Shown in pieces: positions 50,351 through 54,941 of a DNA stretch of 64,000 nt. Source of the stretch: Escherichia phage F13; the sequence record OP745617, one strand, 5' to 3'. Both the position numbers and the translations under genes were made by a program. Each line of letters begins with the position of its first letter. Positions within the stretch are counted from its first letter, which is position 1. The notes beneath the pieces are model-generated. The model had not been told where the DNA came from, did no database searches, and saw only the letters and a list, made by a program, of their open reading frames with translations.

Positions 50351-50902
50351 TTATACAGTGTACGGAGTACCGTCTTGATTCAAGCGCACGATAAACTTCA
50401 AATCAACGCCGATGATTTCACGCGTATCAAAGATCACATAGTTGTAACGACGTTGACCAGCAATGTTCGGGTTGGTATGAGAGTCAGTTACAACTTCCTG
50501 TGCAACCTGAATACCTTCTTCTTTAAAGAACTTACGCCATTCAGCAAGTTCAGCGGCAGTCACGTGCATGCCAAGGTGGCTGACCTGATTGTCATGCGCA
50601 TCGATATATTCGATGTTTTCGTTAATCCAGTTGCAGCCCATTGTGTAGTCAAGGATTTCAAGCTCAAGAGGCTTACCAGCGCCGCCATCAGTACCGTTGC
50701 CAGCCTGATAGTTGAAGCGCAAGTCAGCTTCATTGGTGCAATCGTCGCGACGACCTTTAAAGTCATCAGCTTCAAATACGCGACCAGTAGCAACAACATG
50801 ATCATGGAACCATTCTGTCAGGCCGATTTTAGCCAAGAAATCCTGTGCGCGCTGAGCATCTGGAATTGACAGGGCGATTTGTTCAATTTTAAAATGTGGC
50901 AT
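50351..50902 (-). CDS. VOC/glyoxalase-fold protein (tentative)
   Basis: N-terminus MPHFKIEQIALSIPDAQRAQDFLAKIGL fits the glyoxalase/bleomycin-resistance pattern; weak. Confidence 0.3.
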   Translation of the reverse strand: MPHFKIEQIALSIPDAQRAQDFLAKIGLTEWFHDHVVATGRVFEADDFKGRRDDCTNEADLRFNYQAGNGTDGGAGKPLELEILDYTMGCNWINENIEYIDAHDNQVSHLGMHVTAAELAEWRKFFKEEGIQVAQEVVTDSHTNPNIAGQRRYNYVIFDTREIIGVDLKFIVRLNQDGTPYTV

Positions 50903-50998
50903 TTTGTTTCCTTAATTAAATATTATTGATTAATTACTGCGTTGTCTTCGTCCTGTTTCTTTTCAGGAGCGGGTGTGACAACTTCAAGTGTTCGTGAT

Positions 50999-51682
50999 TT
51001 ATTTACCAAATGGAATATCAGTGCCAGACATAAAGCGCCATGCGCCCGTAATTAAGATATGGCGAATGAAGTCAGCAATTACTTGCGGCTCAGTCTCCAA
51101 TCCATTCATCAGTGCCTTTTTCTGGTATTCAGCGGCGTATTCAGGAGTCCAGCCGCGAGTCGCGCAAACGGCATCTTCAATCTGTTTAGACATGCCAGTG
51201 CCGCGCAACTTGTTAGGACTAATAGAGAATACCGTGATGCCGTACTTAGGCGTAAGTTCGTGAGCCATCTGCTTGCTGATCATAAGCGCAGCGGCCTTGG
51301 ATGCATTATAACACAAGCTGGACGTCATAGGAATATGCGCAGCATTTGAAACGATGTTGATCACAAAACCTTTGTTTTCGATAAGACCTTTCAGCGCGGC
51401 CTGAGTCGTGTTAACGAAAGAGAATGCATTGGTGTGCATAACGCGGTTAAACTCTTCATAGTTTACATCTTCAAACCAATTGTTAGAGTTGACACCAGCA
51501 CAGTTGATCAAGCCTTCAACATCATATGGGCTTAAAATTTCTTTCATCTGTTTAGCATCGCGGACGTCATATCCGTATGCTGAATCGATGCCAAGCACGT
51601 TATGACCGTAAGCGCCAAGGGTGTCAAAAATAGATTTACCAAGACCGGAATTGGAACCTGTTACAACAATTACTTTTTTCAT
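50999..51682 (-). CDS. short-chain dehydrogenase/reductase (SDR) family oxidoreductase
   Basis: TGSNSGLGKS cofactor-binding motif, NCAG, and catalytic YNASK (YxxxK). Confidence 0.8.
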   Translation of the reverse strand: MKKVIVVTGSNSGLGKSIFDTLGAYGHNVLGIDSAYGYDVRDAKQMKEILSPYDVEGLINCAGVNSNNWFEDVNYEEFNRVMHTNAFSFVNTTQAALKGLIENKGFVINIVSNAAHIPMTSSLCYNASKAAALMISKQMAHELTPKYGITVFSISPNKLRGTGMSKQIEDAVCATRGWTPEYAAEYQKKALMNGLETEPQVIADFIRHILITGAWRFMSGTDIPFGK

Positions 51683-51747
51683 TTATTTATCCTTTTTGGA
51701 CTTCGTTTCGATGAGGTAAATATAACTCATCGAAACGAACAAGTAAA

Positions 51748-52620
51748 CTATTTATTGAAATTAATATTATGGGTGTTTACAAGACGTTCACACATGGCGC
51801 TATAAACACCATCGTCGTGTATTGAGTCTTCGTGCTTCAGGCCGCTGATTGCGAAGCGTGTAAGCTTGACAATCTTAAGCTCGAACAGATGCCACATGTG
51901 GTAGTCTTCCGGCGTTTTCAACGTTACGCCATTAGGGAAAAGCACCTGCATAACCTGACCTACCATCACAGCGTTATCGCCATAGACAGCGTTGCGCTCA
52001 CGGAAGGTCGCTGCCATTGCATCAAGAATATCGGCGGCAGTTGCCGGAGATTGTTCAACTTCCACAGCCTTAGTCTCTTCTTGCCCTGTTGCGCTTGGAT
52101 CAATTGCTAATTGTTGCACCACTTCACCTGCTTTGCAAAGATTAAATGTAAAAGCGATTTTATTTTGAGCAACGGAGTTATAATACAATGCTTCATCTTG
52201 CATCCGCGCGAGTACGTCTTGTCGGTCGTCGAATACATTGATGATTCGATAATCGCCGTGCCGCAAAGCGTGCGATAGCCATGCAGATTTCATAATAGTT
52301 GATGGACGTTTGTCGCCATAGTCTCTCATCTTGATTGTAAATTCATCAAAAGGGAAAACATTGTCCAGACGTTCAAAAGTCACTTGTCTGTATTTTTCTG
52401 GCCTTGCAGTCCAATATTCAACCGCCTCACCGCGAAGAGATGCCGACTCTACTGCTGATGCAATGTGAGGATAGAACTGATCATAACCAATACCGCTGTG
52501 ATAGTCATCATAGTCTGACAACGGACCTGCCACCTTGATGCGGTCTAAGCGCCAACGGTCATCAAACAGAGTTCCGTCAAGGTCGAATACGTTTAAGATT
52601 TGGTTATTTTTGATACTCAT
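51748..52620 (-). CDS. HAD-superfamily phosphatase with uncharacterised C-terminal domain
   Basis: Motif I FDLDGTLFDD near the N-terminus; 290 aa; ATGA coupling with the ThyX-like gene. Confidence 0.6.
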   Translation of the reverse strand: MSIKNNQILNVFDLDGTLFDDRWRLDRIKVAGPLSDYDDYHSGIGYDQFYPHIASAVESASLRGEAVEYWTARPEKYRQVTFERLDNVFPFDEFTIKMRDYGDKRPSTIMKSAWLSHALRHGDYRIINVFDDRQDVLARMQDEALYYNSVAQNKIAFTFNLCKAGEVVQQLAIDPSATGQEETKAVEVEQSPATAADILDAMAATFRERNAVYGDNAVMVGQVMQVLFPNGVTLKTPEDYHMWHLFELKIVKLTRFAISGLKHEDSIHDDGVYSAMCERLVNTHNINFNK

Positions 52621-53420: not shown

Positions 53421-53433
53421 TTTAATTATCCTA

Positions 53434-53880
53434 TTAACGGTAGTTAACTAGTTGCTGATCACCAGAGAAGGTGCAATGATAAACGAATTGTGCGTTATAA
53501 AGCAACTGAAAACTTTTCTTTGGTTCATTATTAGAACTCATTGATGTAAAGATTTCTGCACCAGAACGGTTTTCACCAATCAGGTTGATAAAGCCGCCAG
53601 TTGAACGAGGCTGAACGAAAGTGAAACGTTGCATCCACGGAGTGCGGTTGGCACCTTTCCCTGTGAATCCTTGAATCTGAATATTCAGGCCTTCTTGCTC
53701 GTTCACACCGATGTAAGTGGTAATTGTTGCGCCAGTCGTTGCTGCAGTCTTGCCGTCCATCGCTTCGCAATCGTAAACAGCGATTGAATCGGAAGTACGG
53801 ACAGCGGCTTCAGTCGCTTCCATATACATGGTTCCGAGAATAGCAGTTGCGGCAAGCGCGATTCCAGTGATTCGTTTCAT
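53434..53880 (-). CDS. secreted small protein (148 aa, signal peptide, two Cys)
   Basis: MKRITGIALAATAILGTMYMEA signal-like N-terminus; one Cys near each end of the mature chain. Confidence 0.5.
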   Translation of the reverse strand: MKRITGIALAATAILGTMYMEATEAAVRTSDSIAVYDCEAMDGKTAATTGATITTYIGVNEQEGLNIQIQGFTGKGANRTPWMQRFTFVQPRSTGGFINLIGENRSGAEIFTSMSSNNEPKKSFQLLYNAQFVYHCTFSGDQQLVNYR

Positions 53881-53945
53881 TTTCGTTTCCTCTATGAGTT
53901 CTGCTTCAATGATTAAAGTATACGCCCATTGAAGCAGAAAGCAAA

Positions 53946-54941
53946 TTATTTATTAGCAATATAAGCAAATTTTTGATAGTTATTTGCTTTGATGAGTTTT
54001 TCAACTTCAACAAGGTCATGAGCAACGTCATCAAGCAAAATGTTTCGCCAAGTAGCAAAGCGACCGACACTAAATACGTTCAAATCCATGGTCAGCTGTA
54101 GGAGTAGAGCGTGTCGCAAGTCTTTCGGAATGTCGACAATCTTGCCATACTTCTGGTCGACCTTTTCAACTTCTTCGAGATCGATGTCACTCCATGATAG
54201 GCCAAAGGCTGTCAATACTTCGTCAACTTCTGCACGCAACTTAATGTCACGGTAACGAGTAATGCCGCCAGCGGCTTCAACTGCGGCTTCACTTACGCTA
54301 ACCAAAGGAATTGTTTCAATGATCAGTGTGTCACCAGTGATTGATGCGCGGTAAGTTCTGACGGAGTAGTCAGGAAAGTAAATGGTTTGATACAGTGCAC
54401 ACTTGCGCTTAATCTTAAAGCGGTAAACACGAATGTTTGCCTTATCGAATGAGAAATCAATCTTTTGATCAATCCCAGCAAGCTTCATCATGACTGGCAG
54501 CGGCGACGTGTTGATGATTGGCGTCTCGCTATAGCCGCAAAGAGTATCAACAGGAGTATTAAAGAATATGCGGTCACCCAGTTTGTCGACAAGCTGATCA
54601 TAAAAGTCATCAGGCGCAATATAACGCGTTGCAGTTTTAAGCTTCATGATTGAGCGGCTACCGAATTGATTAGTGACCTTCATGGAATACATATTGGCAA
54701 GGTTGATTGGGCAATGGTCGTGGTAGTAGTTGCCGCGAAAATACACAGCCTTGTCAACTGTCACGGCCTTAAAAGGGATTCCGGTAATACGGCTTACTTC
54801 TTCGCCGCGAAATCGTAGCAAAGCCTTGTGCTGTGGCGCTCGTTCCCCTGCTTCGTACACAATGGAGTTCGGGAAGTGACACGCGGTAATAAGTCCTGCC
54901 AAACCGCCGCCGATAATCATTACAGGTTGTTTCATGTTCAT
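53946..54941 (-). CDS. FAD/NAD(P)-binding Rossmann-fold oxidoreductase
   Basis: N-terminal dinucleotide-binding motif VMIIGGGLAGLITA; 331 aa. Confidence 0.55.
   Translation of the reverse strand: MNMKQPVMIIGGGLAGLITACHFPNSIVYEAGERAPQHKALLRFRGEEVSRITGIPFKAVTVDKAVYFRGNYYHDHCPINLANMYSMKVTNQFGSRSIMKLKTATRYIAPDDFYDQLVDKLGDRIFFNTPVDTLCGYSETPIINTSPLPVMMKLAGIDQKIDFSFDKANIRVYRFKIKRKCALYQTIYFPDYSVRTYRASITGDTLIIETIPLVSVSEAAVEAAGGITRYRDIKLRAEVDEVLTAFGLSWSDIDLEEVEKVDQKYGKIVDIPKDLRHALLLQLTMDLNVFSVGRFATWRNILLDDVAHDLVEVEKLIKANNYQKFAYIANK

Follow-up and report, generated by a model that had tools for sequence, protein, structure and literature searches.

We examined a 64,000-nucleotide stretch of DNA from Escherichia phage F13 (OP745617; hereafter the window), which is 100% identical in sequence to Escherichia phage vB_EcoM_SP13 (SP13) of the genus Wifcevirus, and focused on a cluster of enzyme genes in its replication module. 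Other Wifcevirus phages (WFC, WFH, ECML-117, FEC19, Mansfield and Bas98-101) are 92–96% identical to the window region. The cluster consists of six minus-strand open reading frames (ORFs), g6 to g1, separated by spacers of −4 to 96 bp and each with an ATG start and a Shine-Dalgarno-like AGGA or GGAG upstream. Dda helicase and primase genes lie on one side of it, and exonuclease and DnaE polymerase genes on the other. In order, the six genes encode an FAD protein (g6), a protein with a predicted signal peptide (g5), a ThyX-like protein (g4), a HAD phosphatase with a second domain (g3), a short-chain dehydrogenase/reductase (SDR; g2) and an enzyme of the VOC (glyoxalase) fold (g1).

An initial annotation, made from the letters of the sequence, had described six co-oriented, tightly packed genes in the replication module, and all six ORFs were found where it had placed them, on the minus strand. 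The motifs that it had read in the SDR and the HAD phosphatase also hold, and the profile and structure searches that it had proposed, made here with Pfam, NCBIfam and PHROG and with Foldseek on an AlphaFold2 (AF2) model, support the families. Five of its six family calls (VOC, SDR, HAD, ThyX-like and FAD protein) were confirmed, although it had missed the second domain of the HAD protein, DUF6378. The sixth, a signal-peptide protein counted as a member of the cluster, fared less well. While g5 (53434..53880, minus strand; 148 aa) does begin with MKR and a hydrophobic N-terminal stretch, giving a predicted Sec signal peptide, it is confined to Wifcevirus: by tblastn, it is restricted to 28 Wifcevirus records and absent from all other loci compared. 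It has no Pfam, PHROG or NCBIfam match and is probably a genus-specific insert, unrelated to the conserved pathway.

The remaining genes are not neighbors by chance but are conserved as a unit. We compared 80 viral-contig and 8 phage loci around g6 homologs, searching with the six proteins and their neighbors. A ThyX-like gene lies downstream of g6 in 83/88 loci (the other five are too short past g6 to tell), with a median gap between the two of 388 bp, and past ThyX the gene order continues with HAD and DUF6378 and then the exonuclease and DnaE. The core is g6, g4 and g3, and the SDR (g2) and the VOC enzyme (g1) are an optional pair, gained and lost jointly: among 67 loci that are complete from ThyX to the exonuclease, 46 have both, 19–20 have neither and 2 have a single one. 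The five-gene order FAD–ThyX–HAD/DUF6378–SDR–VOC is complete in Serratia, Xanthomonas and Aeromonas phages and was also found by tblastn in Pantoea phage PA1, though the N-terminal part of the HAD protein was not detected there. Pbunavirus, a group of Pseudomonas phages that are distant kin of Wifcevirus (PMC11990801), has the three-gene core (g6, ThyX-like and HAD-DUF6378) alone, without the SDR, VOC or g5 genes. Phages of unrelated types have the core as well, namely ~40-kb podophages infecting Cronobacter, Vibrio and Ralstonia and jumbo phages of Rhizobium, where it lies inside 7 kb of one 206-kb genome; the neighbors of a Rhizobium phage copy include dUTPase, ribonucleotide reductase (RNR) and NUDIX genes. 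Overall, 361 phage records contain g6, which belongs to a family of >1900 proteins; those listed are from named phages or from contigs of phage size. ThyX of the g4 clade is present in ~382 phage records, after which the next matches are actinophage ThyX proteins, with a sharp fall in identity to ≤30%.

The ThyX-like protein g4 (52617..53420, minus strand; 267 aa) belongs to a non-canonical clade with a Cys-rich insertion. It matches Thy1 (PF02511) with E = 1.4e-30 and 106.9 bits (cutoff 24.8) over profile positions 2–191 of 191, and it scores 83.0 bits against the NCBIfam equivalog TIGR02170, under the cutoff of 87.9. We aligned 71 distinct g6-linked sequences to ThyX of T. maritima (TM0449, PDB 1O26), using a reference sequence that agrees with the search tool's own alignment. 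Like the canonical enzyme, the g4 clade keeps the residues that bind dUMP and its phosphate (Q75, R78, R80, R90, R147 and R174, each in 71/71 sequences), but it differs at three other positions. His53, which stacks on folate/NADPH in the T. maritima enzyme, is missing in 71/71, with the five-residue HGHET segment deleted and an Ile aligned at 53; His79 is replaced by T, S or N in 71/71; and Tyr91, which contacts the deoxyribose, is replaced by A, V or I in 71/71. The ThyX motif RHRx7S is also altered, as g4 reads RTRTGAYQERT (RTRx7T), and the S88 position is occupied by T in 53 of the linked sequences, by S in 14 and by A in 4. In addition, g4 has a four-Cys insertion (RLC...QPQC...GKC...HC; residues ~178–245) that is not in canonical ThyX and is found in 35/71 linked ThyX; it is a possible binding site for Zn or an Fe-S cluster. 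Actinophage "ThyX-like" proteins have part of the clade's residue deviation and the four-Cys insertion in common with it, and one Bacillus phage ThyX is canonical. The dUMP pocket of the g4 clade looks intact while the residues on the folate/NADPH and sugar sides are changed, and these changes may alter the product.

The partner of ThyX at these loci, g6 (53946..54941, minus strand; 331 aa; phrog_4828), is an FAD protein of the UDP-galactopyranose mutase (UGM)/protoporphyrinogen oxidase (PPO)/amine-oxidase structural class. It has a UGM-like three-dimensional fold and the FAD-binding GxGxxG...E pattern, and its sequence contains GGGLAG. UGM is the top structural match, with PPOs scoring nearly equal, but g6 is only 10–18% identical to UGM (Glf) and PPO and is shorter (331 aa vs 367–510). 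"UDP-galactopyranose mutase" is also the annotators' name for g6 orthologs in the Mansfield and Hera records. Against Pfam, g6 gave no GLF (PF03275) match at E ≤ 10 and no amine-oxidase signature, and 42/42 members of the g6 family were without a GLF match at E ≤ 1, giving weak NAD_binding_8 matches only. A search of the PDB with the g6 sequence returned nothing significant, and hhalign of the g6 family to one E. coli Glf sequence aligned residues 1–20 (the Rossmann start), which is too weak for mapping the UGM active site with its Arg and Tyr residues that bind the UDP diphosphate. The family has 12 invariant basic residues. A TrmFO/MnmG-like role for g6 was also considered and was rejected, as neither family nor fold evidence backs it.

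The third core protein, g3 (51748..52620, minus strand; 290 aa), is a fusion of a HAD phosphatase of the polynucleotide kinase-phosphatase (PNKP) type with DUF6378. It matches HAD_PNKP (E = 5.3e-8; 33.5 bits, over the gathering cutoff of 27.6) and phrog_4889 (E = 1.5e-122), for which the PHROG label is polynucleotide kinase/phosphorylase. The HAD domain spans residues ~1–170, with the DxDGT nucleophile motif as FDLDGT at residues 12–17, and DUF6378 spans residues ~185–290 (window 51748–52095). The C-terminal domain is DUF6378 in 14/17 g3 homologs. DUF6378 is a separate protein of ~105 aa in many related contigs and is fused to HAD in Wifcevirus and Pbunavirus, so g3 is a fusion of two partners. 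Although g3 shares the HAD domain with polynucleotide kinase-phosphatases of the T4 Pnkp type, the P-loop 5'-kinase domain of those enzymes was not found in g3 with Pfam. Neither the g3 sequence nor a profile of its C-terminal domain gave anything significant against the PDB. In Cronobacter phage Ss1, the position equivalent to DUF6378 is taken by DUF3310.

The two optional genes encode g2 (50999..51682, minus strand; 227 aa) and g1 (50351..50902, minus strand; 183 aa). g2 is a classical SDR of the EntA-like short type (adh_short, E = 4.5e-31; phrog_3142, E = 1.7e-46), with the cofactor motif TGxxxGxG as TGSNSGLG, the YxxxK motif as YNASK and an Asp ending beta-2; it probably prefers NAD. None of the best 25 of 210 matched NCBIfam models reached its cutoff, and the best FabG model scored 75 bits against a cutoff of 222. 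As no equivalog cutoff was reached, the database name "FabG" for g2 is unsupported. We considered and rejected the SDR as a folate or pterin reductase, since family and fold evidence gave no support. For g1, the AF2 model (predicted local distance difference test score, pLDDT, 92.6) has a VOC fold with paired beta-alpha-beta-beta-beta modules. The top Foldseek match was 3gm5 (E = 6e-7), followed by methylmalonyl-CoA epimerases and the C-terminal domain of HPPD (E to 1e-3). While g1 has the same two-module, single-chain VOC topology as methylmalonyl-CoA epimerase, it is distant from it (TM-scores 0.45–0.56, identity 9–18%), and at the usual VOC metal-ligand positions, judged by eye, the first is Gln and the last is Lys. 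The best Pfam score, to Glyoxalase_4, was 18.5 bits, under the gathering score of 27, and a profile of the g1 family against PDB sequences gave nothing significant. The g1 family comprises 690 proteins at 54–85% identity, with all members listed coming from phage-sized contigs or named phages, and Q8, E80, E82, H109, H113, H142 and K169 are invariant in it. Orthologs of both the VOC and the SDR protein were seen by mass spectrometry in lysates of vB_Eco4M-7 and ECML-117 (PMC7048862), at masses of 20.7 and 24.9 kDa vs the 20.8 and 24.9 kDa that we computed.

A candidate product for the core comes from Pbunavirus. Using liquid chromatography–mass spectrometry of F8 and 14-1 virion DNA, Yee et al. 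(bioRxiv 2025.03.31.646159) identified novel thymidine derivatives of 362 and 390 U, which stand in for about a quarter of T and are described as tetritol and cyclic pentose derivatives (PMC12191111). These masses can be reached from 5-hydroxymethyldeoxyuridine (258) by adding a tetritol (122) or a pentose (150) and subtracting water (18) (258 + 122 − 18 = 362; 258 + 150 − 18 = 390). The authors inferred a TG context for the modification and described Pbunavirus as being without known modification genes; they made no gene assignment and named no ThyX or thymidylate gene (PMC12191111). In our literature search, neither a gene assignment for the Pbunavirus modification nor a chemical analysis of Wifcevirus DNA came up. 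F8, 14-1 and E215 have orthologs of g6, the ThyX-like protein and HAD-DUF6378 in the same order, and in F8 and 14-1 this core adjoins the exonuclease and DnaE, with identities to SP13 of ~40% for g6 and ~49% for the ThyX-like protein. The only other recognizable small-molecule enzymes in these genomes (Wifcevirus, F8 and 14-1) are a MazG-like protein and a ligase. Pbunavirus thus shares the three-gene core with SP13, and its sugar-like adducts match the enzyme types of the operon. The two differ in that Pbunavirus is without the SDR, VOC and g5 genes, and also in their response to restriction: EcoRI cuts F8 DNA, while Wifcevirus is resistant to both EcoRI and EcoRV in vivo. A comparison of F8 with 14-1, which have identical gene content (FAD protein 97.3%, ThyX 93.8% and HAD-DUF6378 80.8% identical), gave no clear determinant of tetritol vs pentose. 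A homolog of 14-1 gp88, an anti-END1 inhibitor, was not found in the window, which is uninformative for a 66-aa protein. One entry in Extended Data Table 3 of PMC12191111 stands apart: the site given for "DraI" (CACNNN/GTG) has TG, yet F8 DNA is reported as cut, so the TG-motif inference for Pbunavirus is approximate.

Our best explanation, which we put at about even odds (roughly 50%), is that the core builds a sugar-type hypermodification of thymidine like that of Pbunavirus DNA, and that the SDR and VOC enzyme are an optional pair for tailoring it. All four enzyme types suit sugar chemistry: the UGM-class flavoprotein, the HAD phosphatase, the SDR and the enolate-type VOC enzyme. In such a pathway, a flavin enzyme would create an electrophilic 5-methylene-uracil or 5-hydroxymethyl-uracil center. 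This enzyme would be either the ThyX-like protein, with dUMP as substrate and the final hydride transfer omitted, or g6, with thymine as substrate. A hydroxyl of a C4 or C5 sugar, or of its phosphate, would then be joined to this center as an ether or glycoside, and the polynucleotide-type HAD phosphatase would remove a leftover phosphate. In genera that have them, the SDR, dependent on NAD, and the VOC enzyme, which would form an enolate, would oxidize or reduce, isomerize or epimerize the sugar, and these genera would carry a different adduct. Within this scheme, we infer the enzyme making the reactive C5 center, the sugar donor, the action of the HAD domain on a phosphorylated adduct and the reshaping of the sugar by the SDR and VOC enzyme.

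The closest established pathway is the 5-hmdU-derived thymidine hypermodification of SP10, PhiW-14, ViI and M6, the subject of Lee et al. (PNAS, 2018), which PMC12191111 cites; these phages reportedly use a ThyA-type dUMP hydroxymethylase, the kinase 5-HMUDK and aGPT-Pplase glycosylase-fold transferases. The logic would be the same here (a thymidylate-synthase homolog aided by further enzymes, with T replaced in part and the DNA protected from restriction), but in place of those hallmark enzymes the operon has a ThyX-type enzyme and a UGM/PPO-class flavoprotein. No ThyA-type hydroxymethylase, 5-HMUDK or aGPT-Pplase was recognized in the six proteins, in other ORFs of the replication module or in the Mansfield and Bas100 annotations, though very remote homologs are possible. 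The initial annotation had proposed a pyrimidine hypermodification pathway while remarking that no known pathway matched. The remark stands, as no known hallmark hypermodification enzyme was recognized; the proposal is partly supported, favored by the conservation of the unit and by the presence of its core in F8 and 14-1 with their modified thymidine, although g5 falls outside any conserved pathway. The genes themselves are already public, annotated under partly misleading names and with no role given. Phages with hypermodified thymidine are a known phenomenon; this candidate has none of the hallmark enzymes and would depend on a ThyX-type and a UGM/PPO-type flavoprotein.

The restriction phenotype is a further point in favor of a modification. 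Wifcevirus phages are restriction-resistant by a mechanism that is not known, and they are insensitive to nearly all tested defense systems, EcoP1_I being the one tested system to which they are sensitive (PMC11990801). The window contains 19 EcoRI, 6 EcoRV and 8 EcoKI sites, so loss of sites does not explain the resistance. The EcoP1_I site, AGACC, is without TG/CA, while the EcoKI site contains TG/CA, and this site content fits the sensitivities reported for Wifcevirus. Palindromes as a class are strongly depleted: 17/64 hexamer palindromes are absent from the window, where 10–18 copies of each are expected (among them AGCGCT, TCCGGA, CCGCGG, GGATCC, GGTACC and AGATCT), GATC is at 0.35–0.40 of expectation, and the observed/expected ratio is below 0.5 for 32% of hexamer palindromes vs 2% of non-palindromes. 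We then split the palindromes by TG/CA content, considered those with observed/expected <0.25 as avoided and compared the two groups by Fisher test. In the SP13 window, 0/16 TG/CA palindromes are avoided, vs 24/48 of the others (p = 1.8e-4). The corresponding values were 1/16 vs 17/48 for Serratia phage MyoSmar (p = 0.027), 2/16 vs 18/48 for Pbunavirus F8 (p = 0.07), 7/16 vs 27/48 for T7 (p = 0.4) and 1/16 vs 18/48 for lambda (p = 0.025). SP13 and T7 are alike in that AA/TT palindromes are unavoided and CC/GG palindromes heavily avoided. The pattern is suggestive in that it fits protection of TG sites, but it is not specific enough alone.

Several points weigh against a hypermodification made by this operon. 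The exemption of TG palindromes also appears, more weakly, in lambda, which is unmodified, and strong palindrome avoidance is the usual pattern in phages with restriction-exposed DNA. EcoRI and EcoRV sites are without TG and are resisted nonetheless, so a pure TG motif cannot explain the Wifcevirus phenotype; since F8 DNA is cut by EcoRI and Wifcevirus is EcoRI-resistant, the motif or mechanism in Wifcevirus must differ from that of F8. PCR fragments suffice to reboot the Wifcevirus phage vB_Eco4M-7 (PMC11074155), and an incoming modification is therefore not essential. The genes are tied to the modification by co-occurrence, and for Wifcevirus the claim draws on the DNA chemistry of relatives. 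ThyX alone may provide an ordinary dTMP boost, its dUMP-binding residues being intact. Partial replacement confined to TG would call for an enzyme that acts on DNA, a role for which these proteins are at most candidates, and no transferase, dNMP kinase or dTTP-excluding enzyme was recognized in the searched proteins and annotations. Lastly, the Pbunavirus adduct is made without an SDR or VOC enzyme, so these two may be unrelated to it.

Much of the same evidence can be read as ordinary nucleotide supply, the main rival explanation, which we regard as possible but less likely. ThyX would make dTMP for fast replication, the SDR and VOC genes would be unrelated auxiliary genes kept near by module synteny, HAD-DUF6378 would trim or sanitize nucleotide pools or heal DNA 3'-phosphate ends, and g6 would be a redox helper giving ThyX one-carbon units or reduced flavin. 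ThyX serves dTMP supply in many phages, and the strength of the Thy1 match (E = 1.4e-30), the retention of all dUMP/phosphate-binding arginines, the place of the operon within the replication module beside the exonuclease and DnaE, and the Rhizobium phage copy amid dUTPase, RNR and NUDIX genes are all consistent with it, as is the strong avoidance of restriction sites, which is also seen in unmodified phages. However, nucleotide supply leaves unexplained why g6 is tied to ThyX in every lineage, why the SDR and VOC genes are gained and lost jointly, and why His53, His79 and Tyr91 are lost in 71/71 linked ThyX. It would also leave the modified thymidine of Pbunavirus without candidate genes, in genomes nearly devoid of other enzymes.

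The structural match of g6 to UGM, and the name given to it in the Mansfield and Hera records, would suit a sugar-nucleotide pathway directed at the host surface, in which g6, the SDR, the VOC enzyme and the HAD phosphatase remodel a nucleoside diphosphate sugar, for instance for O-antigen or lipopolysaccharide in superinfection exclusion, with g5 as the exported partner and ThyX as a bystander. O-antigen is the Wifcevirus receptor (PMC11990801), glf is in the K-12 O16 cluster and g5 has a signal peptide. We nevertheless consider this improbable, given that the GLF signature is missing in 42/42 g6 family members and PPOs score almost like UGM, that no glycosyltransferase was found in the annotations or the searched ORFs, and that the core is kept across hosts with very different surface glycans, tied always to ThyX and the replicase and not to receptor-binding genes; g5, moreover, was not found outside Wifcevirus. 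Slimmer still are the chances of a repair or counter-defense unit, in which 3'-phosphate ends left by host nucleases would be healed by the PNKP-type phosphatase, while the redox enzymes would break down an immune metabolite of the host. Such a unit offers no rationale for ThyX or for the g6 linkage, the kinase domain and an adjacent ligase are both missing, and PADLOC models match none of the six proteins; what speaks for it is that the best family of the HAD domain is polynucleotide kinase-phosphatase, in line with the PHROG label, that the phage encodes a DNA ligase, and that these phages are insensitive to nearly all tested defense systems (PMC11990801).

If the core does build a thymidine hypermodification, the route might be a previously undescribed, wholly flavin-based one, without a ThyA-type hydroxymethylase, a DNA kinase or a glycosylase-fold transferase, a bolder proposal that we think rather unlikely. 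In one variant, the ThyX-like protein, lacking His53, His79 and Tyr91, would halt at the exocyclic-methylene intermediate, to be captured by water or a sugar hydroxyl. In the other, g6, with its 12 invariant basic residues, would work directly on the thymine of a short DNA motif and couple it to a C4 or C5 sugar phosphate. In either variant, removing the phosphate from the adduct on the polymer would fall to the PNKP-type HAD domain, and the SDR and VOC enzyme would diversify the sugar between genera. Were this route correct, the module would point to modified DNA in hundreds of phages of Pseudomonas, Escherichia, Serratia, Xanthomonas, Vibrio and Rhizobium.

Few phages are used in therapy against Pseudomonas aeruginosa as much as those of Pbunavirus, and the analysis gives a short list of candidate genes, with the same core in at least 361 sequenced phages and >1900 metagenomic proteins. 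If thymidine hypermodification by this core is true, it would account for the unexplained restriction resistance of Wifcevirus and would provide a genomic marker for hypermodified DNA, from which sensitivity to END-type nucleases could be predicted. It would also represent new enzymology, with ThyX-type and UGM-type flavoenzymes building DNA modifications, and would correct the misleading database names "FabG", "UDP-galactopyranose mutase" and "polynucleotide kinase".

The boundaries of the operon are well marked. An intrinsic terminator of the upstream gene forms the 5' boundary (55026..55046, minus strand; 8-bp stem with 5 GC pairs, then TTTTTCGT), and the Mansfield annotation has a terminator at the same spot. 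A second intrinsic terminator closes the operon 17 bp past the g1 stop (50315..50334, minus strand; 8-bp stem with 7 GC pairs, then TTTTTGT), and a terminator is also annotated at this position in Mansfield, XcP1 and MyoSmar. As g1–g6 are bracketed by these two strong same-strand terminators, they form one discrete transcription unit. Between the first terminator and g6 lies a weak sigma-70-like promoter match (54980..55007, minus strand; 9/12 positions fit), which is a candidate only because such matches are no commoner in the region than in shuffled sequence. Within the operon, the 4-bp overlap of the g4 stop with the g3 start (52617–52620) suggests translational coupling of the ThyX-like protein and HAD-DUF6378. 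The gene upstream of the operon (55075–55920, minus strand) encodes a Lys/Ala/Glu-rich, low-complexity "TolA-like" protein that has been detected by mass spectrometry in relatives; its repetitive composition gives rise to a 269-aa antisense ORF at 55084–55893 (plus strand), almost certainly spurious. Elsewhere in the window, the ORF at 41949–42542 had no Pfam match at E ≤ 0.01, and its position and size match a gene annotated as a MazG-like pyrophosphatase beside the DNA ligase in relatives; it could act in nucleotide-pool control together with the operon.

The gene order is rigid apart from two variable slots. One is the intergenic region between the SDR and VOC genes (50903..50998, minus strand), where other members have a small extra ORF, of 216 nt in Mansfield and 195 nt in the Serratia phages, and where the megablast alignments of several relatives are interrupted. 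The other is the g6–ThyX gap (53421–53945), occupied by g5 in Wifcevirus; Pbunavirus has five small ORFs there, and other phages have homing endonucleases.

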